Below, in pieces: positions 1,645 to 20,100 of a DNA stretch of 64,000 nucleotides. The notes under the pieces are model-generated. The model was given only the letters and a program-made list of their open reading frames with translations. It was not told the DNA's origin and ran no database searches. The stretch is from Candidatus Borrarchaeum weybense (GTDB taxonomy: Archaea; Asgardarchaeota; Sifarchaeia; Borrarchaeales; Borrarchaeaceae): positions 512,001-576,000 of the forward strand of contig JAHQJS010000007.1 of the NCBI GenBank assembly GCA_019057385.1, given 5' to 3'. Position 1 is the first letter of the stretch; each line of letters opens with the position of its first letter. The position numbers and the translations under genes were made by a program.

Positions 1645-1652
1645 GTGCTTAG

Positions 1653-1952
1653 ATGCCAGTCATTGAATTTGTTTTTTACTCAACATTTAAGAGAATAGCG
1701 GGTGAAAAAAAAATCTCAAGAGAAGTTGGACCGACTGTAAAAGATGCGATTGAAGCTTTAGTGGAAGAATTTGGAAGTGAAATGGAAGATCTTTTGATTG
1801 ATTCAACTGGAATACTAAAACGCAATCTAATTTTTTCTTTAAATGGCACAGATATAAGAAAACTCAAGAGATTAAAAACATCCTTAAAACCAGGAGATAC
1901 CATTTCCTTAGTTCAAGCCGTAGCGGGAGGAAGCGATTATCCAAGCATTTAA
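1653..1952 (+). CDS. MoaD/ThiS/SAMP ubiquitin-like protein with C-terminal extension after GG
   Basis: beta-grasp pattern (LNGTDI, LKPGDTISLVQAVAGG) followed by SDYPSI*. Confidence 0.85.
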   Translation: MPVIEFVFYSTFKRIAGEKKISREVGPTVKDAIEALVEEFGSEMEDLLIDSTGILKRNLIFSLNGTDIRKLKRLKTSLKPGDTISLVQAVAGGSDYPSI

Positions 1953-2027
1953 GAATCGGAATATTCCCTAAAAGTGATTTCTTAATTCAGAACAATTGAA
2001 TTCACAAATTTTCTAGGTGAAGAAACA

Positions 2028-3242
2028 TTGAAAAAAAAATCTTCAACTCAAGGAAGAAACCCTATTCGAAAAAACAAAAAAATACCCTTAGCAAACCCAT
2101 TTGTGGGTCAAGAAGAGATTGATGCGGCTTCAAGTGTCTTACGTTCTGGGATCTTGACAAGTGCAACAGGAAGAGGGCCGAAAGTCATAGAGTTAGAGCA
2201 AAAATATGCTCAATATAATGGTGTAAGACATGCGATCGCCTGTTGTAACGGCACGGCAGCATTACATGTTGCATTAACTTCACTTGGGATTAAACCAGGT
2301 GATGAAATCATTACTACTCCATTTAGTTTTATTGCATCAGCAAATGCTGCCCTACTAGTAGGTGCAATTCCTATCTTTGCAGATATAGATCCTCTCACAT
2401 ATACAATAGATCCGGATAAAATAAAAAACGTAATCACTTCAAAAACCAAGGCAATTATTCCTGTGCATTTATTCGGATGTCCTGCAGAGATGGACTCAAT
2501 AGAAAAAATTGCTGACCAACATGGATTGTATATCATTGAAGATATTGCCCAAGCACATGGAGCACGTTATAAAGGTAAAATGGTTGGTTCATTTGGTGAT
2601 ATTGGCTGCTATTCTTTTTATGCAACCAAAAATATTCATTCAGGTGGAGAGGGAGGGTTAATTATCACTAATAATAAAGAAATTGCAGTGAGATGTAAAA
2701 TGATGGTTGCACATGGACAAGGTGCAAGATATGAACATAGTTTATTAGGGTTCAATTATCGAATGCCTGAAATTTCAGCAGCTATAGCATTGGCACAATT
2801 TGATCGATTGGAGTATTTTAACAAGAAAAGAAAAGAACATGCAAAAATATTGGATGAAACATTGAAGCTGGTGAAAGGAATAAGTATGCCGCATAAACCT
2901 GATTATGTGGATCATGTTTATCATTTGTATGTTGCAAAAATTCTTGAAGACTCGGATTGGACAAAGGATGATCTTATTAAAGCTTTAGATACTGAAGGAA
3001 TCGGAGCTGCAGAGGTATATCCAATTCCCATTTATAAACAACCTGTGTACAAGAAAATCAATGATCCAAAAGTAAACTGGGCCGCTAACATTTGTGAATA
3101 TCCAGATTATTCCAAAACTAGATGCCCCATTACGGAAAAACTATGTCAGCAATTAATTCAGTTACCAGTACACCCAGGTTTAACAGAGTTAGATATGCAA
3201 AATATAGTAAACACATTAAGAAAATTGTTGCCAACAAACTGA
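2028..3242 (+). CDS. DegT/DnrJ/EryC1/StrS PLP-dependent NDP-sugar aminotransferase
   Basis: NGTAALH, IIPVHLFG, IEDIAQAHG, SFYATKN (PLP lysine), GEGG, GFNYRM. Confidence 0.93.
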   Translation: MKKKSSTQGRNPIRKNKKIPLANPFVGQEEIDAASSVLRSGILTSATGRGPKVIELEQKYAQYNGVRHAIACCNGTAALHVALTSLGIKPGDEIITTPFSFIASANAALLVGAIPIFADIDPLTYTIDPDKIKNVITSKTKAIIPVHLFGCPAEMDSIEKIADQHGLYIIEDIAQAHGARYKGKMVGSFGDIGCYSFYATKNIHSGGEGGLIITNNKEIAVRCKMMVAHGQGARYEHSLLGFNYRMPEISAAIALAQFDRLEYFNKKRKEHAKILDETLKLVKGISMPHKPDYVDHVYHLYVAKILEDSDWTKDDLIKALDTEGIGAAEVYPIPIYKQPVYKKINDPKVNWAANICEYPDYSKTRCPITEKLCQQLIQLPVHPGLTELDMQNIVNTLRKLLPTN

Positions 3243-3272
3243 CGAATTTCTCTATTATTTTTTGTCATTTCA

Positions 3273-4304
3273 TCAGGATATGATATGTTGGTTTTGTTCT
3301 TTCTTATAGTGACGACTTTCACTCGTCAAATTAGGAACAAGCATCTTAGAATTGTTAAATAATACTTTAAAATTTTCAGCAAGTTCTCTGATTCCATCAA
3401 CAACTGAAAATCTAGTATGAAAACCAAGTTTCTGTTTGATTTTCGAAAAGTCAACGTTATATGAAAAATGAAGCCCGTCTTTTTTGATATGAACTATTTC
3501 TACGTCGTTTTCTACATTCTCCTTCACAAGTTGTGCAACTTGGTTTACTTTGTAATTCTCCTCAGTTGATCCAACATTAAACACTTCCCCGATTGCGACA
3601 TCTTCCGGTGCTCTGATTGCTGTAGTTATTGCCCTTACAGTATCTTGGACATGAATATAAGGTCTCCAGTCTTCTCCAGTATCAAAGATTGTTATTTTCT
3701 CGCCTATTACTGCTTTAAATGTAAAAAGGTTAATTGCAAGATTGAATCGTATTCCAGGAGACCAACCATAGTTTGTAGCAAATCGTAAGCAAGTTACAGG
3801 TAGTTTATAATCTTTGTGATACTTAAGACATTCCAATTCTCCTTTGTATTTTGCATCTGCATATGGATTTGGGGGTGTTATTGAAGATTTTTCATTTAAT
3901 AATTTGTTTTCTCGCTTTCCTCCATACACATTACAAGTAGATGCATATATTAATCGATTGATACCTTGTTCTAAGCAAGTTTCAACAACGTTTTTGGTTC
4001 CCTCGTAATTTACTTTCATAAAAAGATCTGGCATATTAAATGAATCACAGGCTCCAGTTATCGCAGCTAAATGAATAACGATATCTTTATTCTCCATTGC
4101 TTTTAGAAGATCTTGTTTTTTTAGAACATCGCCTCTAAAAAATCGATATTTAGCCTTTGAGGGCAAATTTGCGAGCATGTATTCTCTTCCAGAAGAAAGA
4201 TTATCGAAAACAGTAATATTGATTTTATCAGTAAATGCAAATGGAAGTTTTCTGATTAAAAGAGAACCAATATATCCACAACCACCGGTAATCAAGAGAT
4301 TCAA
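3273..4304 (-). CDS. NAD-dependent NDP-sugar epimerase/dehydratase
   Basis: TGGCGYIG, HLAA, YADAK (YxxxK), LRFATNYG, WRPYIHVQD. Confidence 0.9.
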   Translation of the reverse strand: MNLLITGGCGYIGSLLIRKLPFAFTDKINITVFDNLSSGREYMLANLPSKAKYRFFRGDVLKKQDLLKAMENKDIVIHLAAITGACDSFNMPDLFMKVNYEGTKNVVETCLEQGINRLIYASTCNVYGGKRENKLLNEKSSITPPNPYADAKYKGELECLKYHKDYKLPVTCLRFATNYGWSPGIRFNLAINLFTFKAVIGEKITIFDTGEDWRPYIHVQDTVRAITTAIRAPEDVAIGEVFNVGSTEENYKVNQVAQLVKENVENDVEIVHIKKDGLHFSYNVDFSKIKQKLGFHTRFSVVDGIRELAENFKVLFNNSKMLVPNLTSESRHYKKEQNQHIIS

Positions 4305-4475
4305 TAATTCTGCCTTCCTTTTATTCTAATTTATTCTATTTAGGTATTCGCGTAATATGAGTTCTAATTCCTTGTTTGTCTTTATATACTTTCGACAATT
4401 TTTCGTATAAATAGAATTTTGGAAAAAAGTTTTTCTGTCAAATATTCTTGATCAAAATTGTTGGGAGACTAACTC

Positions 4476-5471
4476 TTAAATGGGTAAATTGTATTTGCCA
4501 ACACGCTTTTCCCATGGCCATTTTCGACCATTATTTTCAAACCAAGTTATTGTATGCCTTAATCCTTCTTCAAGGCTAACCTGAGGTGACCATTTTAAAA
4601 TTTTCTTTGCCTTTTCATTACTGCAGCACAGGCGATCTACATCAAGTGGACGTAATCTCATAGGATCTGTATTGATTTCAATGTCCGTCTTACCTTTTAA
4701 ACGTGCAATAAGATAGGTCAAATCTTTGATCTTAATATCATTATTACTACCTAGGTTTATTGTTTCTCCCCTCGCAGTTAAAGTTTGCCCAGCAAGTAGC
4801 AAACCTCTAACTGTATCTGAAACATAAGTAAAATCGCGGCTACTTTCGATATTACCTAAATTGAGTATATCTGATCTTGACAACTGACTAATCAGTATAG
4901 GGATAATATATGGATGTGTCTCGCGCGGCCCATAAGCATTAAAAGGACGGATTATCACGATTGGAAGGTCCTGTTCATGATATAGTGTAAAACATAATCT
5001 ATCTGCGGCCAATTTTGAGGCTGCATAAGTTGAATGAGGATTTAGAGGATGTTTCTCGTCCATTGGAATGTATTGGGCAGTTCCATAAACTTCTGAGGTT
5101 GAAACGTGGCAAATCATCTTGATATCTGCTATTTCGGAAGTAGCAGCTAAGAGCACATTTAAAGTACCTGTCACATTGACTTCAAAGGTCATTCTAGGGT
5201 AAGCATAAGAAGCAGGAATAAAGGGAAAAGCGGCTAAATTAAAAATCACCTCTTGATCCTTAACTAATTCCTTAACTAATTCTTGGTCACGTATATCGCC
5301 TCGGACAACATTTACTCTTTGTAATTCGGCAAGATTAGCGTCCGCACCTGAGGAAAAATTATCCAAAACCGTAACCACAGCTCCAAGTTCATGTAACTGC
5401 CTCACTAATTCTGAGCCAATAAAACCAGCTCCCCCAGTTACTAGAATAGGTGTGTCTTCGTAGCGATGCAA
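4476..5471 (-). CDS. NDP-sugar 4,6-dehydratase/epimerase (extended SDR)
   Basis: TGGAGFIG, STSEVYG, YAASK, RPFNAYGP, RDFTYVSD. Confidence 0.9.
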   Translation of the reverse strand: MHRYEDTPILVTGGAGFIGSELVRQLHELGAVVTVLDNFSSGADANLAELQRVNVVRGDIRDQELVKELVKDQEVIFNLAAFPFIPASYAYPRMTFEVNVTGTLNVLLAATSEIADIKMICHVSTSEVYGTAQYIPMDEKHPLNPHSTYAASKLAADRLCFTLYHEQDLPIVIIRPFNAYGPRETHPYIIPILISQLSRSDILNLGNIESSRDFTYVSDTVRGLLLAGQTLTARGETINLGSNNDIKIKDLTYLIARLKGKTDIEINTDPMRLRPLDVDRLCCSNEKAKKILKWSPQVSLEEGLRHTITWFENNGRKWPWEKRVGKYNLPI

Positions 5472-5749: not shown

Positions 5750-6883
5750 ATGAAATTTCAGCGAATTGAAGACATGCTTCTGTTCCAGACTATCATGGAT
5801 GATAGTAAATTATTCGTTAAAGAACTGGAAACGATGAGGAAGAAAAAAAATTCAATTGACTGGCTTTACATCATAGAGTGTGCTAAAAGGAATTCTATTA
5901 TTCCTCAAGTTTACATTTTTTTTGATATTGCTAAAGATATTCAAGTACCAAAGGAGATTCTTGAACAATTAAGGCGTTTATATTATAAATACTTATCTTA
6001 TTATCTTACAGCAAATTATACGATAAAAGAAATCATAAAGTTGTTTAATAAAAACAATATTCGATTTCTATTAATAAAAGGACATTCCATTGACCAATTC
6101 TATCCTCATTCTCATTACAGACAGTTTTTAGAGATTGATGTTTTAGTCTCCTCAGTGAAAAAATTCAAAATGGCTTGCAAAAAATTAAGAGATTTTGGAT
6201 ACAGGGTTTTCCCAAAAAGACAACTTAAAGAAAAACATCTGTTCGCCTTAAATTTTGCTAAAAAGGATAGAATAAGTATTGATCTCCACAAAGAATTAAT
6301 TTGGGGAAATCATAAAAACTGCAAAGAAGAACTTTTTCGAAACAAAAATATAATGAAAATTGATGGATCAAATCTCTTTACAGTTTCTCCAGAAGCCAAC
6401 ATTTTGTTTATTTGCTCAAGATTATTTGAATCAGGGTATTTTCTGATTAGAGATATCTTCGACGTTATAAGAATAATTTCTTATTCCAAAGACCAACTAA
6501 AATGGGATCACATTTTATATAGTGCGCAGAAGAATAATCTGTTATTTCCACTTCTATGTCTCCTTTATCTTGTTCACTTCTTTTATCATCCAGATTTAAT
6601 TCCCAGAAGCGTTTTTAAACAATTGTCAAGAAATTTCTTTTTAAAACTGATTTGGGCGTTATTGAAAAAAACTAAAATAGAATTTCCATTATTCTGGAAC
6701 TCTTCAGTAAGTAAGATAGGTCTATTATACGGAAATCTCCTTAAATCTAAAAGAAATTTGAAACAATTTATTTTAGATGTCCAAAGATCTGGACTGAGTC
6801 ATGAATTACGATTTCTTTTGGCTCAACGCATTAAACAGCCAATTGCTTTCCATTATATTAAAGAAATGCTTATACGAAAATGA
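5750..6883 (+). CDS. Nucleotidyltransferase of the NTP_transf_5 type (RiPP/lasso-cluster associated)
   Basis: LLIKGHSI...YP...RQFLEIDVLV (KG...R...[DE]xD motif), IDLH, C-terminal helical IRDIFDV; context with HprK-like kinase and PqqD. Confidence 0.8.
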   Translation: MKFQRIEDMLLFQTIMDDSKLFVKELETMRKKKNSIDWLYIIECAKRNSIIPQVYIFFDIAKDIQVPKEILEQLRRLYYKYLSYYLTANYTIKEIIKLFNKNNIRFLLIKGHSIDQFYPHSHYRQFLEIDVLVSSVKKFKMACKKLRDFGYRVFPKRQLKEKHLFALNFAKKDRISIDLHKELIWGNHKNCKEELFRNKNIMKIDGSNLFTVSPEANILFICSRLFESGYFLIRDIFDVIRIISYSKDQLKWDHILYSAQKNNLLFPLLCLLYLVHFFYHPDLIPRSVFKQLSRNFFLKLIWALLKKTKIEFPLFWNSSVSKIGLLYGNLLKSKRNLKQFILDVQRSGLSHELRFLLAQRIKQPIAFHYIKEMLIRK

Positions 6884-7092
6884 AGACTTATCTCATTTAC
6901 TAAAGTGAATTCAGATTATGATGAATAATAATTAAAGGTGACGTTTTTCGAAAGTTATTCCTTATAAGTCAATGAATTTCGGGTTAGATTATATATATTA
7001 AAAGCATAGACTTTTGATAATTTGGTAACTGGAAAAGGGTTTTCGTCGAAATAAAGGTATCAGCGAAATATCGACAAGAGGAATATACAGAA

Positions 7093-7803
7093 ATGACACG
7101 TGGAATTATTTTTGCACATTCAGATATGACTGAAATATCAGAACCTCTTTATTTTCACCCCGCAACTTTAGATGAGACATTAGTTCACCAAATTGCAATC
7201 AAAGCAGCCACCCTCGTTATGACCACCATAGATCTCTCCATAGATTTTGAAGGCGCTTCATTATTTCAATTTCCCGACAAAGGGATTACTATTTTAGTCT
7301 ACTATTTTCTTTTTTCACTTGAAGAGAATGAAACAGAAAAACAAACCCCTGCAACTATATCTTTGTTAATAGAATCAAAATACGATTGGTTTTTCTTTAA
7401 AGAGATTAAACCTTTAGTACGCCGCATTGCTCTAATAGTAAGAAGAATCAGAGATTCTGGAGAAATTCTAATAGAAGAATTCAAAGAATTGTACAAATTT
7501 CTTAACACGGTGTATCGTCGAGATGAAGACCTTAAAAATTCACGAATTTTTTCGTCCCAAGCGATTAAGAAACCAATTTACATTTCAGATCCTCAAGGAT
7601 TTTTAGATTACTACCCTTATGTCAATCTGGATTTGGGAGATGCGATTATCTCACATCTAATAGATGGCGATGCTACTATAGCAGAACTATCAACGATCTT
7701 GAGTGCCTCATCCTTTGAGCTACTTCCCATATTTCAACGGCTTTTTCGTTATAAACTGATTTCTCTTAAGAATAATGCGTCAGTTTTAGAATTAAAGAAA
7801 TAG
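7093..7803 (+). CDS. Hypothetical protein; putative longin/uDENN-like N-terminal domain plus C-terminal winged HTH
   Basis: GIIFAH...EPLYFHP...IAIKAATLVM...FQFPD...VYYF...ATISLLI pattern resembles Asgard uDENN/longin proteins; C-terminal DGDATIAELSTIL...LFRYKLISL looks like a wHTH. Confidence 0.45.
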   Translation: MTRGIIFAHSDMTEISEPLYFHPATLDETLVHQIAIKAATLVMTTIDLSIDFEGASLFQFPDKGITILVYYFLFSLEENETEKQTPATISLLIESKYDWFFFKEIKPLVRRIALIVRRIRDSGEILIEEFKELYKFLNTVYRRDEDLKNSRIFSSQAIKKPIYISDPQGFLDYYPYVNLDLGDAIISHLIDGDATIAELSTILSASSFELLPIFQRLFRYKLISLKNNASVLELKK

Positions 7804-7962
7804 TAAATTAATGTATAAAATCTCATTTTAAAGAGTTTTTCCCTAAATAATAAATTAAGAACTCTCTAGGATACCAAAGGATTATTTACATTAAGAAGAA
7901 CATCTTTCAGAAGTAAATAGAAACCCCCAATAATTTATTGTATTGTATTTGAGTGATTCACA

Positions 7963-8135
7963 ATGAAAAAAAATAGAAACGTCTAGAAATTAAAGTTCTG
8001 GCTTTAAGTCAAAATGCGCTTCTTGGAGAAAAAAAACATTGGGTGACTTTATGGTTCCTGGAAAAAAACGAAAGGATACATCTCAGACTTTGCAGCAGAT
8101 TTACAGGAATTATATGTACAAAAGACTTTCATTAA
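7963..8135 (+). pseudogene. Possible decayed paralog of the RiPP precursor
   Basis: GAGTGA SD, ATG, A8 run, then TAG AAA CGT CTA GAA ATT AAA GTT CTG = (*)KRLEIKVLALSQNALLG, which aligns without gaps to WEKPEIKELDVEIGVVKG. Confidence 0.3.
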
Positions 8136-8262
8136 GAGAAAAGAATTCTAAAAATGGCTAAGAATATCTCAAAAATACGAAATCCAATTGAGGAAACCGT
8201 TAATTTTAAATATAAGGAGTAAAGATATTAGAAAAAGATTAACGTATCAATTGGTGTTATAC

Positions 8263-8337
8263 ATGAAATGGGAAAAACCAGAAATTAAGGAACTTGATGT
8301 CGAAATTGGAGTCGTCAAGGGATCTTGGGGATTCTAA
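8263..8337 (+). CDS. Putative RiPP precursor peptide MKWEKPEIKELDVEIGVVKGSWGF (24 aa; below ORF-track cutoff)
   Basis: GGTG SD at 8253-8256; WxxPxI/L leader motif typical of RRE-bound lasso/PqqA-type leaders; T-rich tract after the stop; lies between the NTase and kinase genes. Confidence 0.72.
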   Translation: MKWEKPEIKELDVEIGVVKGSWGF

Positions 8338-8370
8338 AATATTTTTTTATTTAATTCCTGCTATTTTTTA
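8338..8370 (+). terminator. T-rich archaeal-type terminator after the precursor gene
   Basis: ATTTTTTTATTT...CTATTTTTTA directly after the TAA. Confidence 0.35.
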
Positions 8371-8468
8371 GTATATTTTGGGCTTAGTCAACTCATATTA
8401 AGCTAGTTTTCAATATAATCTTTTTTAAGATTGAATAAAAAAATCTAAAATACTGGCTAGTTTTAGTA

Positions 8469-9485
8469 CTAATCGTTATTATCGAAAATATCATCTACAG
8501 TTTTTAAAACTTGAGAGTGATTCTTTCCTAAAAATAAATCATAACATTTTATGTTGCGAACTAAACTGTATGCTATTTCAAATATACTTTTGCGAATTGA
8601 TGTGTCCTTTTGTACAGATGGAAATGGATCAAAAACGCAAGGTAGTAATCTTTGAAGTGCTTCCTCTGATGACAATTGTTTATAATTAGACTTTCCAGAA
8701 GTTAAAATCGGAAATGCAATAAATTTAAGCTTAGCTTTTCTTGTTAAACAATTTGCATATATCTCAGTAATGTCAATGTAAGGACGCTTAACTCGTGTTC
8801 CTTTTCTCCTCGTATAAATTTGAAATTCTGAAAATTGTTCAATTATATCTGGCCGGACTTTCAATCTAAGAGGAAAAGCAAAGATCTCAAAAGTAGAATT
8901 TTTACTTAAAATTAGTGGATAATCATCAGACAGAAAATTATAGCCCAATCTTGTCAATATAATTGAGAGTGTGGTTTTTCCGCTACCTGCTTTACCTGGA
9001 AATAGAATTCCCGCGTTATTCTTTGAAGCTGCTGCAGCATGAACACTAAATATCTTTTTTTTAATTAGTTTCTTTGTTAAGATATTCATAATCATGTCTG
9101 TGAGCATATGGTACACTGAAAGATTTTCAACTGTTGAGTATCCGTGATAAATTTCCTGATCTGGATTAGCTAGAAAGATAACATTGCCAGACATACCGTT
9201 TATAATTATCCAACTATCATCTAACACACTAATACTAAATTCCGCTAAATCGTCGGTAAGAATTTCCTTTATCAGTTTGGCTTCTTTTAAACCATAAAAA
9301 TTAATAGGAAACGACTTTAAATCATTCATAATTTGGAAAAATACGTTTGCATCTAAATTTGAATCCTTTATTGAGTTTAACTCGAAATGTTTATAGTCTT
9401 CCAATATTTCATCGTGATAGAAATCTGAATTAGATATGAAATTCAGTCTTACACCATGTACTGATATCTTTGTAATCCTGAACAT
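8469..9485 (-). CDS. HprK-related kinase (lasso-peptide kinase / ScmC-like)
   Basis: VHAAA, P-loop GKAGSGKTT, FLSDDYP di-aspartate, FAFPLRLK. Confidence 0.82.
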   Translation of the reverse strand: MFRITKISVHGVRLNFISNSDFYHDEILEDYKHFELNSIKDSNLDANVFFQIMNDLKSFPINFYGLKEAKLIKEILTDDLAEFSISVLDDSWIIINGMSGNVIFLANPDQEIYHGYSTVENLSVYHMLTDMIMNILTKKLIKKKIFSVHAAAASKNNAGILFPGKAGSGKTTLSIILTRLGYNFLSDDYPLILSKNSTFEIFAFPLRLKVRPDIIEQFSEFQIYTRRKGTRVKRPYIDITEIYANCLTRKAKLKFIAFPILTSGKSNYKQLSSEEALQRLLPCVFDPFPSVQKDTSIRKSIFEIAYSLVRNIKCYDLFLGKNHSQVLKTVDDIFDNND

Positions 9486-9512
9486 GAAATCGAACTCATG
9501 TTTTTGTTATCT

Positions 9513-10061
9513 TCAATTAAAAATATGAAAAAAATTTCCTCTGAGTTTTCGTGATATATTACTTCTAAATATCTTATACTTCTTTAGCTGTTTTGGCCTC
9601 AATTTTGAAACAAATATTTCAAGTAGAAAGCCAATCTTAGTCTTGAAATTAACATTGCTGTACTTATTTTTACTATTTAATTCGATTACTTTAGCAAAAA
9701 CAGATCTAGCTTGAATTGGACGATCAGCAAAATAAGAATTATCTCCTTTGGTTAAGAAATAAGTTGTCTTTAATTTGACTTTCCATAAAACTCTGTGTCC
9801 AATCAATGTTCCTGCTTTTTTAAACAGAATGATATCTCCAATTTTAATTTGTTCAACAGTCACTTTTTGAAAAAAAACTTCTTCTCCATCTTTAATTGAA
9901 GGTTCCATACTTTGTCCACGAAAGGGTAGTTTTACCTTCTTTTGATTTTTCAATGCCCTCAATATTAACTCTAAGCTAATCTTTTCTTCACTTTGTTCTT
10001 CTGTATTTTGTTCACTACTTTTTTTCACAAAAACACCCAACTCAGGACATATAAATCTCAA
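9513..10061 (-). CDS. S24/S26-family peptidase without membrane anchor (probable leader peptidase); likely start GTG at 10028
   Basis: GQSMEPSI (Ser), GHRV (His), TKGDN...D; no N-terminal TM helix. Confidence 0.85.
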   Translation of the reverse strand: MRFICPELGVFVKKSSEQNTEEQSEEKISLELILRALKNQKKVKLPFRGQSMEPSIKDGEEVFFQKVTVEQIKIGDIILFKKAGTLIGHRVLWKVKLKTTYFLTKGDNSYFADRPIQARSVFAKVIELNSKNKYSNVNFKTKIGFLLEIFVSKLRPKQLKKYKIFRSNISRKLRGNFFHIFN

Positions 10062-10262
10062 AACAGTGATAATTGCATTTTTTTTATATTAATCGCTTGA
10101 ATTAAATAACTTATATGTTTAAGACTTCAATCACTCTAAACAGATCATTATTACCTATTTGTATGACCTATATTGCTTTTTTTAGTAATTCTTAAATACC
10201 CTTTCGGACACGATAACCAGTTCTTATAAAAATTTAGAATCTTTCTTAGGAGCGGTTTTTCA

Positions 10263-13200
10263 TTGGGAATAACTTGCATAATTAATAAGAAGCCTTATTA
10301 TTATATTTCAAAATTTAAAAATCCAAAAAAAGTTTTTTGCTTCGCTTTTATACTTATCTTCACTTTAAGCATAATATCTTATACTTTTCTTTTTGATAGT
10401 CGTTCACCTCAATTGGAGATTATTTCTCCACTGGACAATTCTACTGTTTTTGGAAACGTTAAGATTGAGGTAAATGCAGAGGCTTATCACGAGATTTATA
10501 GAGTAACATTAAGCATAAATGAGGGTACATCTTCACAGATGGATAAAATTAATGGAAATAGCCAGCAAGGCAAGTATGTTTATGTTTGGAATACGCAGGA
10601 GATTCCCGATGGAACATATGAACTTAATGTTCAATTGATTGACACTTTCGGACATACAACACAAAAACAAATTACAGTATATGTAAAGAACGTTTTTATT
10701 AGTACTTTCAGTAGTTCAGCAAAGGATTCTTCTAATGAATTGGTAACGGATTCAAACCAATACCACTATTTGTCTTTTGATCAGATATCGGAAACTGGTT
10801 TCATAGTGGAAACTGAAGAAATAGAAGAAACATTCAATGTAATTGTTGAAAAAACAGAAAGAGAGGAAGATAGGGTCCTAATATCAGGAGTTTTGTCATT
10901 TAACGGGCCACTTCCAGATGCTTTTTGGTTTAATGTAACAGGAGATACAGGACAGTTATTAAACTATAAATTTAACCCAGAAATTCCAGAAGATGCTATA
11001 TTGCAAATAACTGAGAATGAAGAACCGCCACTCATTATTAAAATAGACGGAAACGCGATAAACGAACAAGAAACCTATCTTTTCGAACTTTATTTTGAGA
11101 ATGACAATGAATTTAACGGTAAAATCAAAGTTGGAACTGGTACAACTGTTGTCTTAGTCTATGAAGCACAAAACGATCCTACTATAGACGGAACATTAAC
11201 TTCTGGAGAGTGGGATGGCGCTTATGTTATGGCATCAGATTGGAAAGCTGAAAATGGAGGAGCATCTCCAACATTTGATATCGCTGCATATATAATGCAG
11301 AACTCCACACATGTTCTTGTTGCTTTTAATATTTCAGATGCCATTATCGTGAGCGATCCCTATGGAGATTATGCAGTAGTTTATTTTGATGTAAATAATG
11401 ATGCTCCACCTCCACAAATTGTTGGTGATCCAGCGATAGATGACCATGGTTATGGTATAGTGAGAACTCCAACTGGAGGACTTCGTGAAGAACGTCAGGG
11501 AATAGGTACCAGCACAGGAAGGGAAGGTTGGGATGATTCAGGCAAATGGCGATATTGGGATATTATTGATCCTCCTTCTGCAGCTTGGAAATCTGGCTTC
11601 TTTGATGACGATACTTATTGGTCAATTGAATTAGCAATTCCTTTTTCTGAACTTGGAGTAACTTCTCAAGATGTAATCGGTATTAAATGTCTATACGGTG
11701 AGAGTGCAACTGAAACGGAATTCGCATGGCCACCTGGTGGCGGAGATCCAGGTGAACCTGTAGGTGATTTGGATGCAGAAGATGACACTGCCAGTTATGG
11801 TGATGCCTATTTGGATATTGATGGTCCAATAGTGTGGAACGTTACAGTAAGTCCTCAACAAGCGATAGAAGGAACTCTTTTCACGTTTACAGCAACTGTT
11901 AATACGACAGCGTCTGAAACGATTACCAGTGTAACAATAGATATTACAGAGCCTGATAAAACACCAGTAGCGTCTATTACTTTATATGATGACGGAACTA
12001 GTAGCGGTGATCTTGTTGCTGGAGATGATATCTGGACAGGCCAGTGGGATTCTACGGGGAATTCAGTTGGAGATTATTATTTATCAGTTGACGCAGAAGA
12101 CATTCAACTTGATTTAACAACAGTAAATAATATGACTTTAGTTGAGATAATAACGTCAGATATTCTACCGCCTGAAATCTCTAATGTTCAAATAACTCCT
12201 TCTGTAGGTCAATCCGGCGATAGTTTCACTATAAATGCTGATGTTACGGATCCTTCTGGTGTTAGTAGCGTGATTGCACATATTCAAACTCCTGATGAAA
12301 CTGATATTGCTACAGTAACTCTATATGACGATGGTTTGCACAATGATGGTGCTGATGATGATGGCACCTATGGAAATACTTGGGACTCCACAGGACAAGC
12401 AGAAGGTACTTATTACGTTGATATCGTTGCAACGGACACTGCTACAAACTCAGGAGAGTTAGAGAACGGAGACACGTTTATTATTGATAACACTGCTCCT
12501 AGTGTATCTAATGTCCAAGTGACACCTTCTGAAGGCCAGTCTGGCACTATTTTCACCATAACCACCGATGTCACTGATACACTTTCAGGTGTTAATAGTG
12601 TGATCGCTTATATCCAAATGCCTGATGAAACTACCATTGCTACTGTAACGCTGTATGATGATGGCTTGCATAATGATGGAGCTACTGGAGATGACACTTA
12701 CGGAAATACTTGGGACTCCACAGGGCAACCTGAAGGTACCTATTATATTGACGTTGTCGCAACAGATAATGCCAGTAATTTAGAAGAGGCTGAAGATGGG
12801 GACACGTTTATAATTGATAACACGCCGCCTGTAGTCTCAAATATTCAAGTATCTCCTTCTGCGGGTCAATCTGGTACAACTTTCATCATCACAGCGGATG
12901 TCTCGGATGCCTTGTCTTTAGTCAGCAGTGTGACGGCCTATATCCAAATGCCTGATGAAACTACCATTGCTACTGTAACGCTGTATGATGATGGCTTGCA
13001 TAATGATGGCACTGCCGGAGATGGCACCTACGGAAACACCTGGGACTCCACAGGACACGCTGAAGGCACCTATTATATTGACATTGTTGCAAGTGATGGT
13101 GTTGGCAATTCAGTAGAGGAGGAAAATGGGGACACGTTTATAATTGATGATAGTCCTCCAAATGTTTCCAATATACAGGTAACTCCTTCTGCCGGTCAAT

Positions 13201-15938
13201 CAGGGACTGTTTTCGTCATAACGGCTGACGTGTCAGACCTGCTCTCAGGAGTCAACAGTGTGACTGCCTATATCCAAATGCCTGACGAAACTACCATTGC
13301 TACCTTACAATTATTTGATGATGGCTTGCATAATGATGGCACTGCCGGAGATGGCACCTACGGAAACACCTGGGACTCCACAGGACAATCATCCGAGATA
13401 TATTTCATTGATATCGTTGCTGATGATAACCTAGGCAATTCAGGAGAAACTGAGAACGTTGACACATTTATTGTTGACGATGACCCACCTACACTTCCCG
13501 ATCCTTTTGTACCACAACAATCAGTTGAATATCCTAATGACCAAGATGATGTCACTATAACAATTCCAGATCCAATTGACCTTTCACCCATTGCTGTCTA
13601 CCTTAATTATACAATAAATGGAAACCCGCAATCTTCAATACTTATGCAATATGGTAGTTCATATAGCGGTACAATACCTGCCCAGCCTGCAGGTACAACA
13701 GTAACATACTTCTTTCATATTTTTGATAGTGCTGGAAATGATCTGGTTAATTCTAGTTCGGCTTATGCATATATTGTCGACGGTGCCCCACCTGAGATCT
13801 CAAATGTTCAAGTTACACCCTCTAGTGGTCAATCGGGGACTGTTTTCGTCATAACGGCTGATGTGTCAGACCTGCTCTCAGGAGTCAGCAGTGTGACTGC
13901 CTATATCCAAATACCTGATGAAACAACCATTGCTACAGTAACGCTGTATGACGATGGTTTGCACAATGATGGTGCTGCTGAAGATGGCACCTACGGAAAC
14001 ACCTGGGACTCCACAGGACAATCATCCGAGATATATTTCATTGATATCGTTGCTGATGATAATGCCAGCAACTCAGGCGAACTGGAGAATGGAAACACTT
14101 TTATCATTGATGACGATCCTCCTCAGGTTTCGAACGTTCAAGTTACGCCCTCTACAGGTCAACCTGGCACTATTTTCACCATAACCGCCGATGTCACTGA
14201 TACACTTTCTGATGTCATTAGTGTAACTGCTTATATCCAAATGCCTGATGAAACTACCATTGCTACAGTAACGCTGTATGATGATGGCTTGCATAATGAT
14301 GGAACTACTGGAGATGACACTTACGGAAATACCTGGGACTCCACAGGACAATCTATCGGTACCTTCTATATAGATATTGAAGCGGTAGATACTCTCGGTA
14401 ATTCTGGTGAGACTGAGAATGGAGCTATTTTTGCGACTGATGATACGCCGCCTGCAGTCTCAAACATTCAAGTATCTCCCTCTGCAGGTCAATCTGGTAC
14501 AATTTATACCATCACGGCGGATGTTTCGGATGCCCTGTCTGGAGTCAGCAGTGTGACTGCCTATATCCAAATACCCGATGAGACAACCATTGCTACAGTA
14601 ACGCTGTATGATGATGGCTTGCATAATGATGGTATTGCCGGAGATGGCACCTACGGAAACACCTGGGACTCCACAGGACAAGTTGATGGTACTTATTATA
14701 TTGATATCGTTGCAAGTGATGGTATTGGCAATTCAGTAGAGGAGGAAAATGGAGACACGTTTATAATTGATGATAATCCTCCAAATGTTTCCAATATTCA
14801 GGTAACTCCCTCTGCCGGTCAATCTGGTACAATTTATACCATCACAGCGGATGTTTCGGATGCCCTGTCTGGAGTCAGCAGCGTGACTGCCTATATCCAA
14901 ATGCCTGATGAAACAAACATAGCAACATTACAATTATTTGATGATGGAGCACATAGTGATGGATTAGCTGGAGATGGTACCTATGGAAACACATGGGACT
15001 CCACAGGTCAATCATCAGAGATATATTACATTGACATTGTTGCTGATGATAGCCTAGGCAATTCAGGAGAGACAGAGAACGGTGAAACATTGATTGTTGA
15101 CGATGACCCACCTACACTTCCTCCTGATTTTGAGCCACAACAATCAGTTATTGATCCAGATGATCAGGAAGCTGTCACCATTATAATACAAGATCCTCTC
15201 GATCTTTCGATTAGTGAGGTATATCTTAACTACACAACGAATGGAAACCCACAACCTTCAATACTTATGCAATATGGTAGTTCATATAGCGGTACAATAC
15301 CTGCCCAGCCTGCAGGTACAACAGTAGCATACTTCTTTCATATTTTTGATAGCGCTGGTAATGATTTAATTGAAAATAATGGTGGTTTGAACTATACATA
15401 CACAGTAAGCAGTTCTGGCGGTGGAGGAGGTGGCGGAGACGGTAGCAGTAGCAATGGTGACGGCGACAGTAGCAGTGGTAATGGAGGAAGCAAGACAACT
15501 GCAAAAACAATGATATTAACATTACTAACTGAAATTCCTTCTGCTGTTACTCAAGGTACAAGAGTCACTGTGAAATTTAGTTTAACAGATGAATCTGAGA
15601 ATGGCATAGAAGGTGCAATTGTTTCCTTAACGATAGCCAATGAATCAATAGTTTGCACTGATTTAGGAGATGGAATATATACCACTATGATTGACACTTC
15701 TGGTCTATCTCCAAGCGACTATACTGTATCAATCTCAGCAAGCAGTGAAGGCTATGAGTCAAAAACTACTACTTTCACTCTTACAGTAACTCAACAAGTT
15801 CCGTTGATTTTAGTAGGAGCAGGAGGCGTAATTGCAGCATGTGCAGTTCTTGGTATAATTCTGGTCTTAAAAAACGCTGGTATAATTTTTTCAAAAAAAT
15901 TAGCTTCATATTACCAGAAAATTCATCAAATGACCTAG
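10263..15938 (+). CDS. 1891-aa acidic cell-surface protein: Ig-like domain, DOMON/CBM9-like domain, nine LYDDG-type (choice-of-anchor X-like) repeats, Gly/Ser linker, Ig-like domain, C-terminal TM
   Basis: N-terminal hydrophobic segment; PTIDGTLTSGEW...WSIELAIPFSELG; repeated TLYDDGLHNDG..GDGTYGNTWDSTG; C-terminal LILVGAGGVIAACAVLGIILV. Confidence 0.85.
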   Translation: MGITCIINKKPYYYISKFKNPKKVFCFAFILIFTLSIISYTFLFDSRSPQLEIISPLDNSTVFGNVKIEVNAEAYHEIYRVTLSINEGTSSQMDKINGNSQQGKYVYVWNTQEIPDGTYELNVQLIDTFGHTTQKQITVYVKNVFISTFSSSAKDSSNELVTDSNQYHYLSFDQISETGFIVETEEIEETFNVIVEKTEREEDRVLISGVLSFNGPLPDAFWFNVTGDTGQLLNYKFNPEIPEDAILQITENEEPPLIIKIDGNAINEQETYLFELYFENDNEFNGKIKVGTGTTVVLVYEAQNDPTIDGTLTSGEWDGAYVMASDWKAENGGASPTFDIAAYIMQNSTHVLVAFNISDAIIVSDPYGDYAVVYFDVNNDAPPPQIVGDPAIDDHGYGIVRTPTGGLREERQGIGTSTGREGWDDSGKWRYWDIIDPPSAAWKSGFFDDDTYWSIELAIPFSELGVTSQDVIGIKCLYGESATETEFAWPPGGGDPGEPVGDLDAEDDTASYGDAYLDIDGPIVWNVTVSPQQAIEGTLFTFTATVNTTASETITSVTIDITEPDKTPVASITLYDDGTSSGDLVAGDDIWTGQWDSTGNSVGDYYLSVDAEDIQLDLTTVNNMTLVEIITSDILPPEISNVQITPSVGQSGDSFTINADVTDPSGVSSVIAHIQTPDETDIATVTLYDDGLHNDGADDDGTYGNTWDSTGQAEGTYYVDIVATDTATNSGELENGDTFIIDNTAPSVSNVQVTPSEGQSGTIFTITTDVTDTLSGVNSVIAYIQMPDETTIATVTLYDDGLHNDGATGDDTYGNTWDSTGQPEGTYYIDVVATDNASNLEEAEDGDTFIIDNTPPVVSNIQVSPSAGQSGTTFIITADVSDALSLVSSVTAYIQMPDETTIATVTLYDDGLHNDGTAGDGTYGNTWDSTGHAEGTYYIDIVASDGVGNSVEEENGDTFIIDDSPPNVSNIQVTPSAGQSGTVFVITADVSDLLSGVNSVTAYIQMPDETTIATLQLFDDGLHNDGTAGDGTYGNTWDSTGQSSEIYFIDIVADDNLGNSGETENVDTFIVDDDPPTLPDPFVPQQSVEYPNDQDDVTITIPDPIDLSPIAVYLNYTINGNPQSSILMQYGSSYSGTIPAQPAGTTVTYFFHIFDSAGNDLVNSSSAYAYIVDGAPPEISNVQVTPSSGQSGTVFVITADVSDLLSGVSSVTAYIQIPDETTIATVTLYDDGLHNDGAAEDGTYGNTWDSTGQSSEIYFIDIVADDNASNSGELENGNTFIIDDDPPQVSNVQVTPSTGQPGTIFTITADVTDTLSDVISVTAYIQMPDETTIATVTLYDDGLHNDGTTGDDTYGNTWDSTGQSIGTFYIDIEAVDTLGNSGETENGAIFATDDTPPAVSNIQVSPSAGQSGTIYTITADVSDALSGVSSVTAYIQIPDETTIATVTLYDDGLHNDGIAGDGTYGNTWDSTGQVDGTYYIDIVASDGIGNSVEEENGDTFIIDDNPPNVSNIQVTPSAGQSGTIYTITADVSDALSGVSSVTAYIQMPDETNIATLQLFDDGAHSDGLAGDGTYGNTWDSTGQSSEIYYIDIVADDSLGNSGETENGETLIVDDDPPTLPPDFEPQQSVIDPDDQEAVTIIIQDPLDLSISEVYLNYTTNGNPQPSILMQYGSSYSGTIPAQPAGTTVAYFFHIFDSAGNDLIENNGGLNYTYTVSSSGGGGGGGDGSSSNGDGDSSSGNGGSKTTAKTMILTLLTEIPSAVTQGTRVTVKFSLTDESENGIEGAIVSLTIANESIVCTDLGDGIYTTMIDTSGLSPSDYTVSISASSEGYESKTTTFTLTVTQQVPLILVGAGGVIAACAVLGIILVLKNAGIIFSKKLASYYQKIHQMT
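11815..15410 (+). repeat. Intragenic ~330-bp tandem repeats with a 1623-bp higher-order duplication
   Basis: Nine ~110-aa units; TGACCCACCTACACTTCC at 13481 and 15104 gives the 1623-bp period. Confidence 0.9.
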
Positions 15939-15963
15939 AAAAAGCAAAATTGGGGTATAAAAA

Positions 15964-16227
15964 ATTCTCCCGAAAACTAGTGAAGATATAGTATGGAAAA
16001 AGAATAATGACAAAATCGTTATATTTGATGCTAAAAGTGGAAAATTGTTTGAACTCAGTGAAACAGCCGCATACATATGGGAATTATGTGATGGACAAAA
16101 AACAGAAGACGACATAATTTCAATTTTAGCCAAAGAATTTAACAAAGATGAAGCAGATATCAGAGGAGACGTCATGGAATTTATGGAAGAGATGTATCAG
16201 AAAGGATTTCTTGATAAGAATACCTAA
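15964..16227 (+). CDS. Stand-alone PqqD/RiPP recognition element (RRE); 5' end lacks an in-frame canonical start
   Basis: In-frame ILPKTSEDIVWKKNNDKIVIFDAKSGKLFELSETAAYIWELCDGQKTEDDII...DVMEFMEEMYQKGFL is a classic PqqD pattern; in-frame TAA at 15958. Confidence 0.88.
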   Translation: MLPKTSEDIVWKKNNDKIVIFDAKSGKLFELSETAAYIWELCDGQKTEDDIISILAKEFNKDEADIRGDVMEFMEEMYQKGFLDKNT

Positions 16228-16485: not shown

Positions 16486-16953
16486 ATATATCCATTTGGT
16501 CATATCTTCTTTGCTTTAATATTACTTGATATTTTTAGTCGAAGAGAAAGGATTGATATTTCTAATATGAATAAGCTCCTTGTTGCATTTCTTTCAATTT
16601 TTCCAGATATAGATTATGGGATTGACTTGATATATGGGACTCATTTTCATGGATTCCAGTTCTTTCCTCTTACAATATCATTTGTTATCGTTTCAATTCT
16701 ATATTTTAAAACAGAAAAATTTCACAGGAAAGGAATCTTTTTATTATTTATAGCTCTTGGAAGTCAGTTTTTCGGTGATTTACTAGTCGGATCACAAACT
16801 TACTTAATATTAGCATTCACGCTGCATGTAATTCCTGGCAATTTCTTTTTGTTTATGGCTTCATTTGAGATTATAATGCCTATAATTTTCCTTATTTACA
16901 AATTATTAACAAGGAATGCAGATATGACTACAGATACGGAAATGATGAATTAA
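16486..16953 (+). CDS. Membrane protein, YdjM/metal-dependent hydrolase-like
   Basis: Upstream extension (I)YPFGHIFFAL plus SIFPDIDY, HFH and several TM helices; probable ATA start after GGTAGGG. Confidence 0.5.
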   Translation: MYPFGHIFFALILLDIFSRRERIDISNMNKLLVAFLSIFPDIDYGIDLIYGTHFHGFQFFPLTISFVIVSILYFKTEKFHRKGIFLLFIALGSQFFGDLLVGSQTYLILAFTLHVIPGNFFLFMASFEIIMPIIFLIYKLLTRNADMTTDTEMMN

Positions 16954-17144: not shown

Positions 17145-20100
17145 TCATCTTCGATGGCGTAGCCTAAGAACTTGATCCCGGATGATCACAAATATAGCCC
17201 CAAGAATTATTGACATCATACCAATCCGAATTGGCAGAAATAGACTAGAGATGTAATTATTAATAGCTGTCGGAATGATCATCTCTTTAATTTCTATGAC
17301 TTTTATTTCTTCATAGGTTGAATAGCCGTCTTTTTTTACTGTTATAGTAATTTCATGCATTCCCAGATTTAGATCAGTTGTATCTATTACACATGTATAT
17401 GTATCGACATCATCGAAAATTGCATAAAATATTTTTTCAAGAATTTCTAATTCTACTGAAGCATCGGAAATTATTTTGTTCTCATCATCAAATACCTTTA
17501 TTTTAACAAAGATTTTATCACCTTGGAAAACAGTTGTTTCGCTAAAGTTTATTATGGCAATTAAATCCAAATTATCCTGATCTCCACTGCCTCTTCCTCC
17601 ACCCCCAGTGTCCTCTTCTTGTGATGATTCAACTGTTACGATCAAAAAGTCGCTTGCAAAATTTCCAAAGGTGTCATTTGCATTTATTATATAAGTGTAC
17701 TCTCCAATGCTTAATCCGTCTATATTGATGATAATTTGAGCGCCACTTGAGTAAGATCCACTCTGAACCAAAATACCATTTCTTGTAACATTGTAGTAGT
17801 CTGGATGTGGTTCATTTATTATCCAACTAATGATATTCCCTGTAGTTCCTATCTCGTATGATATATCACCTGGAGAATTGAAAGTAGGAGGAGTAACATC
17901 AGGAGTAACCGTTATATTGATAATATCACTTGCCGAATTACCAGAGCTGTCATTTGCATATAGTATAAACGTATAAATTCCAACACCTAATCCATCTACA
18001 TTAACTAAAACACTTCCGTAGTATGCTCCGCTTTGTACCACAGTACCATTTCTTGTGACATTATATTTATCCGAATAGGGTTCATAAATCGTCCATGAAA
18101 TGGAATTTCCAGATTGTCCAGCCTCATATGAGAAATCTGCGGGTGAAGAAATTGAGGGGGCGGTGGTGTCCGGTCCAGTTTCAATTTCAATATTAGCACT
18201 GCTCGCAAAAGTATGATTGAAAGATAAGATCTTTGTTAAAAAATCGTGATTAAATAATACTGGTGCTCCATTGATTGTAATGGAAGCAACTGGGAGATTA
18301 CAATAAACTAAAAATTCAGCATCTGTGCCTGAATGAGCAGTAGCGTTTATTATATAGATATTTCCAATAGCACCTTCATTTGTAACTGACACTATATTAT
18401 CACTTGCTTTTGCATAGACCAATGAGATATATTCATATTTGGCTTCTTTAATAATAAACCAATGAGCAATTTCTCGTTCAAATGTAAACTCAAATCGTTC
18501 ACCTTTCTGGAAAAGTACATCTCCATTATCATCGGTTACTAAAGTCTTATTAGTTTCGCTTAGTTCAACGGAATCTAAAATATGTGAATTATATCCCAAA
18601 TTCGAGGTCGGACGGTCAAAGACATAGATCAAATAGTCTTTGTTTGCTTCCATAAAATCGGAAAAGTCCACCTGCGTTGTATGGTAAGGGATAGTCCGAA
18701 CTTCAAAATCAGTGCTTGAGAAAGAATCATAATAAATCGAAACAAGTGTTGCGTAAGAGTTGTTATAGACTGTATAGTACATATACTTGTCTCTTGTGAA
18801 ACCATTGACCCATCCTGCATCTAAGGTAACGTTTACATGACAAACTTTATCGGTATTATCTGTAAGATAATAAAATGTTCTCATAAATGTTTCAAAAAGT
18901 CTACCACCCATCGGGTAATCTAATGGGTAAGTACCTGAAGATTCATATGGCGTATAAGCAATATATCCGCTCCCAATATCATCTCTTATGTAAAGATAAG
19001 GCATTTTCCACGAATTGTCTCCATACCAAATGATAACATATTCAGCATTTGCCTCATTAGTTACATTATACATGCCATCTGCAAAATTGTTAACTCTTAA
19101 TCCTTCCCATTCGGGTTCTCCAAGCATATTAGGCAAATCAGGCTGATAACCTTCAGAATTATCTACTAATCCACGATACTCTTCGTCATTTATGATCCAA
19201 TGACTCTCATCAACAAAGAAATTATCATTTATTTCATCCCAACTAGCGTTAACGCATTGCAAACCCAATAATTGCTCCCAATATCCTGTTCCTAAACTAG
19301 TTCCATTTGTGCTATATCGTCCAACATCACCCATAAACCATACAGCCCCTCCATCCATCACATAGCTTGTAACACTCGAATTTAACTTGTCTGAATATAA
19401 TGAATGATAAGTTGTATCTGGGCTTCCAGTATTTTGCCCTGCAATTACTAGTAAATCACAATCATCTGGAATGCCATTTTCTTCAATATAATAAGTTGAG
19501 ATAAAATCAAGCTGAGCAGGCAATCGGAAAAATAAGGATTTATGATAAAGTCGTGGTGTCATTCTCGTCCCATCTGCTGCACCATAAAAATCTGAAATTT
19601 GTCGCGCGGATACACCGACCATAAAATAAACCTTTGCTATTTTGCGATCGGAAAATTGCTTGTATGTTTTCCATACTTCTCTGAAATCTTCATGTGCTTG
19701 CCTGTAATCATCATACCTATCTTCAGGAATATTATATCCATACGGGCTTTGGTGATTATACATAATTGCTGGTAAGGTACCTTGAGCACTTGTCCTTTGT
19801 AAAGTGGCTCTTAATCCTTCATGATCAAGATCATCTTGCCATGTTTCTTCCCAATCATTCATAAAAGGCACTCTAGTACTCCAATAGTCCACATAGTTGA
19901 TGAAATACTCATCATCAATATTAGTTCCTTTCTGATGTTCAAAAATATCTGCACCAAGCCGAATTGCCAAGTCTGAAGATTGTAGTCGATTATCATCACC
20001 ATCGTACAAAATTACGCTAACATTATGATTTTTTGCTTGATTAATTAAGAGTTTATACCATTCATTATGGATAAGCTTTTGTCTAAAGTATAACCAATCG

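Follow-up and report, generated by a model that had tools for sequence, protein, structure and literature searches.

A probable archaeal version of the linear polyphosphorylated peptide pathway in the Asgard archaeon Candidatus Borrarchaeum weybense

Background

The linear polyphosphorylated peptides (LPPs) are a class of peptides made by the ribosome and modified after translation (RiPPs) described in Bacillota (Popov et al., Nat Commun 2026, May; PMC13381572). Their clusters, lppAKBSDN, encode LppS, which is homologous to signal peptidase I (SpI) of the archaeal type, a discrete RiPP recognition element (RRE) LppB, the HprK-like kinase LppK, the NTP transferase LppN and a pump of MsbA-like type; they are often embedded in capsule loci and were called restricted to Bacillota (PMC13381572). 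The precursor carries the N-terminal pattern YxxPxVLxHQxIxFETxxS followed by a variable C-terminus, with a length range of 35-200 amino acids (aa), and the RREs discriminate W from Y in the leader (PMC13381572). In the experiments, which used the homologous system of Paenibacillus alginolyticus in a heterologous host, LppK placed one to four phosphates on core Ser3, and LppS, described as a homologue of B. subtilis SipW, cut the leader after T-1 with LppB being required; LppN had no detectable effect in this host, for which the authors postulated a missing substrate or partner, and the final product and function of the class are not known (PMC13381572). Herein we analyse a stretch of 64,000 nucleotides (nt) from Candidatus Borrarchaeum weybense (GCA_019057385.1, JAHQJS010000007.1, positions 512,001-576,000), called the window below, and describe in it a cassette that probably represents the LPP-type RiPP pathway in an archaeal (Promethearchaeota/Asgard) form, with a linear, ringless peptide as its product.

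A sequence-only reading of this stretch had named five genes, for a nucleotidyltransferase, a 24-aa peptide, an HprK-like kinase, an S26 peptidase and a PqqD protein, and all five were recovered at their places by open reading frame (ORF) check and domain searches. The system is not without precedent; since the gene set matches the class published in 2026 (PMC13381572), we are probably dealing with an archaeal version of a known system rather than with a new kind. Our literature search brought up no account of LPP-type clusters from archaea. Related cassettes were recovered from sediment metagenomes and metagenome-assembled genomes in at least six lineages (L009-L011, L012, L033/L039, L073, L116 and L118), via close homologues of the kinase, of a 236-aa cassette protein or of the peptidase, plus a DNA pattern of the leader.

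Results and discussion

Comparison with the LPP clusters

For the comparison, Paenibacillaceae LPP loci were taken, which show a spacing of 19 positions from the aromatic residue of the leader to the Ser; in L110 the order lppA-K-B-S-D-N was confirmed. As in these loci, the archaeal cassette combines a soluble archaeal-type SpI with its Ser/His/Asp residues, a stand-alone PqqD-type RRE, an HprK-like kinase and an NTP_transf_5 enzyme, with no cyclase; the precursors on both sides have an aromatic-xxP motif, a hydrophobic residue at position 6, a Ser at position 19 and a variable Gly/Pro/Asn-rich tail; and the clusters on both sides are embedded in polysaccharide loci. There are differences as well. 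Besides the archaeal host, the leader is of WxxP rather than YxxP type and has no HQ..FET block, the RRE stands closer to RREs of W type, the kinase is extended at its N-terminus by about 80 residues, there is no linked MsbA-like exporter, and the gene order and strands differ; moreover, the archaeal cassette incorporates a gene for a giant surface protein and one for a longin-domain protein. Some of the archaeal cores have only 6-8 residues. In a Paenibacillaceae locus (L113; G464:C43, ~8616-8696, minus strand) an LppA-type precursor of 27 aa was seen, below the range of 35-200 aa, so very short cores are not peculiar to the archaeal variant.

Leader peptidase and precursor peptide

The peptidase provides the most specific link to the LPP class. 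Its gene (9513-10061, minus strand) encodes an LppS-like homologue of the archaeal-type signal peptidase I, which matches the model TIGR02228 above cut-off (3e-16), over model positions 36-122 only. Ser51, His89 and Asp107/Asp113 are invariant, and the motifs GxSMxP, GHR and GDN..D are kept in all lineages. The enzyme had been read from the sequence as anchor-less, and hydropathy bears this out: there is no transmembrane segment, the maximum 19-aa value being 1.05 (1.05-1.63 across the lineages) against 2.99 for the housekeeping signal peptidase of the same genome and 2.38 for SipW. In phmmer comparisons the cassette peptidase matches Paenibacillaceae LppS with 1e-14 to 4e-9, whereas the genome's own housekeeping peptidase and SipW are matched at about 1e-4 only; in a maximum-likelihood tree the archaeal cassette peptidases and LppS stand together, opposite to SipW and the archaeal housekeeping enzyme, with support 99/98. 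Judged by these scores and this tree, the cassette peptidase is specifically related to Bacillota LppS and does not group with the genome's own signal peptidase. Word-based protein searches with the peptidase and with the kinase found only close relatives.

The second line of evidence is the precursor. The short gene at 8263-8337 (plus strand) encodes an LppA-like peptide of 24 aa, MKWEKPEIKELDVEIGVVKGSWGF, in which residues 1-18 are predicted as leader, KGSWGF as core and Ser21 as the phospho-site. Beside the related cassettes, short ORFs of this type are met again in at least six lineages, and their leader hardly varies: every lineage covering the spot has one to three of them (L009, L012 with three copies, L033/L039, L116 and L118), and the leader reads [K/E]W[E/K]KPE[I/V]K[D/E]L[D/N/E]VE[I/V]G, while the tails are variable and Gly/Pro-rich, as KGSWGF, KGSWGW, KGSFGPGF, KGSLGPGPGLPMDW, AKSPAATKPPG... 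and ALSPALEGPPG.... Over the 17 leader codons, orthologue pairs differ by 3-4 synonymous versus 0-2 non-synonymous changes, and with such conservation and synonymous change the reading of the 24-aa ORF as a chance frame was rejected. W1, P4, G14 and S19 are invariant in the family, and in 8/8 intact archaeal precursors the Ser at the 19-position spacing from the Trp is the sole invariant one. This spacing was not imposed by the search, as the leader pattern used ended at position 9; the 9-codon pattern gave matches in genome contigs, a 14-codon pattern gave none, and no other peptide of the precursor type was found elsewhere in the genome.

Since the spacing from aromatic residue to Ser is the same as in LppA, the cut is predicted after Val18, and Ser21 would become core Ser3. 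By this analogy with LppA it is the most likely arrangement, and a cleavage after Gly20, as the sequence-only reading had proposed, is unlikely. The same distance appears once more in an unrelated and uncharacterised type of cluster (PqqD, B2 protease, radical SAM/SPASM enzyme and kinase), where the precursor (L021, ~2279-2390; L023, ~534-650) has YLKP as its motif and Ser-Pro at positions 19-20 from the aromatic residue. HprK-like kinases guided by an RRE may use the 19-position spacing as a general ruler.

Kinase, nucleotidyltransferase and RRE

The remaining enzymes belong to the expected families, at greater distances. The kinase (8469-9485, minus strand) is an LppK-like, HprK-related P-loop protein of the ScmC family, with TIGR04352 at 1e-11 (below cut-off), Hpr_kinase_C at 8e-3 and PF27840 ScmC among the precomputed hits; its P-loop GxGKT, His149 and Asp187/188 do not vary even among distant relatives. 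The equivalog cut-offs of the HPr-rel-A system (TIGR04352/TIGR04353) are not reached, with 44 versus 200 bits for the kinase and 22 versus 35 bits for the PqqD protein. Among 2880 relatives at E<=1e-3 one alone lies above 33% identity; the best distant relative (33% identity) sits in the L021 cluster of PqqD, B2 protease, radical SAM enzyme and kinase, and the similarity to Paenibacillaceae LppK is remote (4e-5). The cassette is rare: the kinase occurs in one of five congeners, and among 400 genomes from the phylum none comparable was seen. Three further Asgard genomes have kinase homologues of 29-32% identity, which were considered and rejected as cassettes, since they lie in unrelated contexts (AAR2, CDC48, proteasome and NYN genes).

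The nucleotidyltransferase (5750-6883, plus strand) is an LppN/PsmN-like NTP_transf_5 enzyme (PF14907, E 1e-34), single in the genome and present also in L009, L033, L116 and L118; its motif KG...S..R..[ED]ID is kept in L009, in L033 and in the lasso-linked enzyme of L036. A nucleotidyl-Ser product, as the sequence-only reading had envisaged, would be without precedent: the related PsmN adds a hexose to the phosphate of phospho-Ser (PMC6993621), and no activity of LppN was seen on heterologous expression.

The stand-alone RRE (15964-16227, plus strand; PF05402, 1.5e-20) is LppB/B1-like and contains the only PqqD domain of the genome. A profile of the archaeal RREs finds the RREs of W-leader clusters with 5e-14 to 4e-9, versus 7e-7 to 6e-3 for Bacillota LppB; being closer to the W-leader RREs fits the discrimination of W from Y reported for such domains (PMC13381572).

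Two further known systems share parts with the cassette. The lasso clusters of the paeninodin/pseudomycoidin type (PadeK/PsmK, PsmN), whose products are phosphorylated or phosphoglycosylated, have a near-identical leader start WEKPEVK[DE]L (L036; Paenibacillus L025, L028 and L030), together with a B1-type RRE, an HprK-like kinase and an NTP_transf_5 enzyme; however, the archaeal genome has neither an Asn-synthase-like cyclase nor a B2 cysteine protease, ring formation is impossible for the core, and the target Ser is internal and near the cut site rather than C-terminal. The L021 clusters, built as PqqD - Transglut_core3 - radical SAM/SPASM - ScmC-like kinase, hold the nearest distant relatives of the kinase (33%) and of the RRE, but they work with a B2 cysteine protease and with a radical SAM enzyme, they have no S26 peptidase, and on the fragment seen there is no nucleotidyltransferase.

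The lack of a cyclase was followed over the whole genome (4.18 Mb, with an estimated completeness of 100% and contamination of 7%). Domain searches of the window gave no match to Asn_synthase, Transglut_core3, Radical_SAM, SPASM or YcaO, in agreement with what had been noticed from the sequence. In the whole genome there is no Transglut_core3 (B2 protease), no YcaO, no second PqqD and no PF13471 match, and a genome-wide search for a lasso cyclase found none, the Asn_synthase homologues being AsnB-like only (52 bits versus a cut-off of 525).

Proposed pathway and alternatives

Putting these parts together, the pathway would run as follows. The stand-alone RRE would bind the 24-aa precursor via its WEKP motif; the HprK-like kinase would phosphorylate the invariant Ser21 (core residue 3), probably several times; the RRE would present the leader to the cytoplasmic, anchor-less S26 peptidase, whose cut, most likely after Val18, would release KGSWGF; and the NTP_transf_5 enzyme would then probably decorate the phosphate, plausibly with a sugar from the neighbouring nucleoside-diphosphate (NDP) sugar genes. 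Much of the mechanism proposed in the sequence-only reading, namely an RRE that presents the peptide, a soluble S26 that removes the leader, a kinase and a nucleotidyltransferase that act on Ser, and no ring, is retained here with the LPP homology and the kinship to LppS behind it; its cut after Gly20 is unlikely.

Several observations weigh against assigning the cassette to the LPP pathway, or against details of the scheme. The S26 tree has long branches and an arbitrary root. There is no HQxIxFET block in the leader, and G-V-V stands in place of F-E-T ahead of the predicted cut, which makes the cleavage site uncertain. The kinase, RRE and nucleotidyltransferase share no more than a remote similarity with LppK, LppB and LppN of Bacillota (E 1e-5 to 1e-2 when a small database was searched), and both RRE and kinase are nearer to the PqqD-B2-radical SAM-kinase cluster than to LPP; so the pathway may be a separate assembly around an LppS-like peptidase. 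On these comparisons the archaeal cassette could be either a deep branch of the LPP family or such a separate assembly. A recent transfer from Paenibacillaceae is not supported, as clear specific kinship holds for the peptidase only. No MsbA-like exporter was found within 40 kb, among the scanned ORFs of at least 110 aa between 484 and 49753, where several ORFs were left unscanned. Finally, the RRE has an unusual start and a second precursor gene has decayed in this genome, so the pathway may be weakened here.

Taken further, this last point leads to the view that the cassette of this genome is a decaying relic whose product is no longer made. The RRE frame contains no ATG, GTG or TTG before 16045 and begins at 15964 with ATT, where the orthologues of L009 and L073 have ATG at exactly this codon. 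The second precursor (7963 to about 8060, plus strand) aligns from its ribosome binding site and ATG with the precursor paralogues of L012, and is a pseudogene with TGG>TAG, CCA>CTA and an internal deletion; even the precursor that survives is two codons shorter at the N-terminus than its orthologues, which amounts to a loss, and no exporter is linked. Nevertheless the five main ORFs are intact with their catalytic residues conserved, the RRE frame is open over 87 codons behind a GGGG(T) Shine-Dalgarno-like element, and ATT is an accepted start in translation table 11. We regard a relic without a product as unlikely.

Another view is centred on the giant gene nested inside the cassette (10263-15938, plus strand), which encodes a repeat-rich surface protein of 1891 aa with an N-terminal signal or anchor, Big_7, Big_3_3 and CBM_56 domains and a C-terminal transmembrane segment, as seen by Pfam and hydropathy. 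Wherever a lineage has DNA at this place (L009/L010, L039, L073, L116 and L118), a homologue comes after the S26 gene in divergent orientation, and in every one of them the giant gene sits between the S26 and RRE genes; the RRE gene starts 25 nt after the giant gene stop, a spacing of 24-25 nt being kept in L009 and L073, and it is predicted to be co-transcribed with the giant gene. The S26 peptidase and its partners might then serve the giant protein, as a dedicated maturation peptidase like SipW for TasA, with the kinase and nucleotidyltransferase modifying the giant protein. In fact, SipW of the B. subtilis tapA-sipW-tasA operon is of the same peptidase family, its gene also adjoins that of a secreted structural protein, and LppS has been called a SipW homologue (PMC13381572). 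But SipW-type enzymes are membrane-anchored (hydropathy 2.4 versus 1.05), and for the anchor-less cassette peptidase a signal peptide would be out of reach once translocated; this peptidase groups with the RRE-dependent LppS, SipW falling on the opposite side of the 99/98 split; and the cassette has a conserved WxxP precursor, while the N-terminus of the giant protein, the only part inspected by eye, shows no WxxP-type motif. This role is quite unlikely.

The peptide might also be a PqqA-like or SPASM-type precursor, cross-linked by a radical SAM enzyme encoded elsewhere, with the kinase, nucleotidyltransferase and S26 peptidase used in tailoring and processing only. The RRE is slightly above the PQQ_PqqD cut-off (47.4 versus 46), the genome has seven SPASM enzymes, and the nearest relatives of kinase and RRE come from the L021 cluster, which has such an enzyme. 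Against this, no radical SAM gene lies near the cassette in any of its lineages, and in this genome the closest ones are 15 kb ahead of the window and 52 kb past it; the cores have no Cys and no conserved cross-linkable residue pair; and among relatives of solved structure, the RRE is best matched by TbiB1 and TfuB1, both lasso B1 proteins. As for the pyrroloquinoline quinone (PQQ) biosynthesis set, there is no PqqE radical SAM gene in the window, PqqB and PqqC having not been searched for separately. We give a cross-linked product very little probability. Lastly, a lasso peptide was rejected, because the genome has no cyclase and no B2 protease; the short-type cores (KGSWGF, KGSWGW, KGSFGPGF and KGSLGPGPGLPMDW) have no Asp/Glu at positions 7-9 for ring closure, most of them being without any acidic residue.

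The longin-domain gene and the divergence of the locus

The archaeal LPP-type cassette has a further component with no counterpart in the Bacillota clusters, a 236-aa protein (7093-7803, plus strand) always encoded directly upstream of the precursor genes. It has no Pfam match; its predicted structure (AlphaFold2, AF2; predicted local distance difference test score, pLDDT, 67) has a longin fold in the N-terminal domain, for which Foldseek matches C9orf72, the Lokiarchaeota Roadblock-Longin protein 8yqg, Lst4 and FLCN, and a winged-helix-like, three-helix/wing domain at the C-terminus. This N-terminal domain shares homology with the corresponding domain of Rag/Gtr1- and Ras-like GTPases from other Asgard families. 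The protein was also considered as a second RRE, which is not supported (hhalign versus PqqD, probability 1%). Paralogues with 56-59% identity exist in all four congeners without the cassette (no kinase match), and by this distribution the 236-aa protein is a cassette-linked paralogue of a genus-wide gene. In the genome itself, longin paralogues are seen at G000:C4:840858-841538 and G000:C5:105045-105743. The distant, 29%-identical longin paralogue, in L119 (G000:C5:104000-111500), is separated by about 3 kb from a gene of the radical SAM/SPASM type (L119 4771-5766), which may be coincidence.

The genes of the locus diverge very unequally. Between L009 and the window, the flanking sugar genes are 94-98% identical, versus 84% for the nucleotidyltransferase, 73% for S26, 70% for the RRE, 65% for the kinase and 46% for the giant protein. 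In L033, the stretch of longin gene, intergenic region and precursor has 87% DNA identity (94% at the protein level), versus 36-42% protein identity for the kinase, S26 and nucleotidyltransferase. Across the lineages, the cassette-linked longin protein stays at 72-94% identity where the kinase has 41-65% and the neighbours fall to about 40%. Seen in these identities, the cassette is a hot-spot of divergence with a conserved core of longin gene plus leader, a mosaic which suggests either recombination or very unequal constraint.

Around the cassette, NDP-sugar genes at 484-5471, which domain searches show as epimerases/dehydratases, a DegT aminotransferase and a LegB-like 4,6-dehydratase, are possible sugar donors, and they are found beside the cassette in L009, L033 and L116 too. 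The cassette sits in a fast-evolving island of glycan and surface-protein genes. This envelope island, and the RRE gene placed behind a giant surface-protein gene, point to the cell surface; the narrower role of a primer, carrier or signal for envelope glycan, proposed in the sequence-only reading, is not supported. One could go further and imagine that the RRE shares the transcript of the giant, fast-evolving surface protein, that the nucleotidyltransferase uses an unusual NDP-sugar from the adjacent genes, that the resulting phosphoglycosyl-hexapeptide acts on or with the surface protein or its glycan, for instance as an anchor, primer or cue, and that the eukaryote-like longin protein controls or escorts it; such a chain of events is improbable. 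If true, the LPP class would have a function for the first time, and a longin-type regulator of Asgard archaea would be connected with a peptide natural product.

Several other genes of the window are recorded here. A 128-aa hydrophobic membrane protein downstream of the RRE (16567-16953, plus strand; no Pfam match) is of uncertain membership in the cassette, being 80% identical in L009 and replaced by an ABC ATPase in L073. A second giant membrane-tethered surface protein of 1580 aa is encoded at 17145-21887, convergent with the cassette, and its C-terminal part is 73% identical in L009. Farther on, a glycosyltransferase-rich island contains a homologue (33194-34324; PF03214, 8e-23) of the reversibly glycosylated polypeptides, a family best known from plants, together with glycosyltransferase family 2 (GT2) genes at 27767-28639 and 30205-31890. 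Moreover, there are two IS605-family OrfB/TnpB genes (24943-26193 and 34899-36191; OrfB_IS605 and Cas12f1-like TNB domains), the first split into two ORFs with the helix-turn-helix (HTH) part at 25624-26193 and the core at 24943-25545, and a gene at 28945-30048 for a 367-aa protein with RRXRR (PF14239, 1e-57) and HNH (PF01844) domains, an architecture of the IscB/IsrB-related kind.

Conclusions

To sum up, the cassette of Candidatus Borrarchaeum weybense probably encodes an LPP-type pathway in an archaeon, and with such a variant the route to linear phosphopeptides by a soluble signal peptidase would cross the domains of life. Its 6-residue core with one Ser would be the simplest substrate for learning what the nucleotidyltransferase adds, and the position of this enzyme beside NDP-sugar tailoring genes suggests, as a concrete candidate, what the substrate or partner postulated as missing by the authors of the LPP study could be. 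The 19-position Ser spacing, seen across three cluster types, could help to predict modification sites. Moreover, the physical tie to a giant surface-protein gene provides a testable lead on the function.

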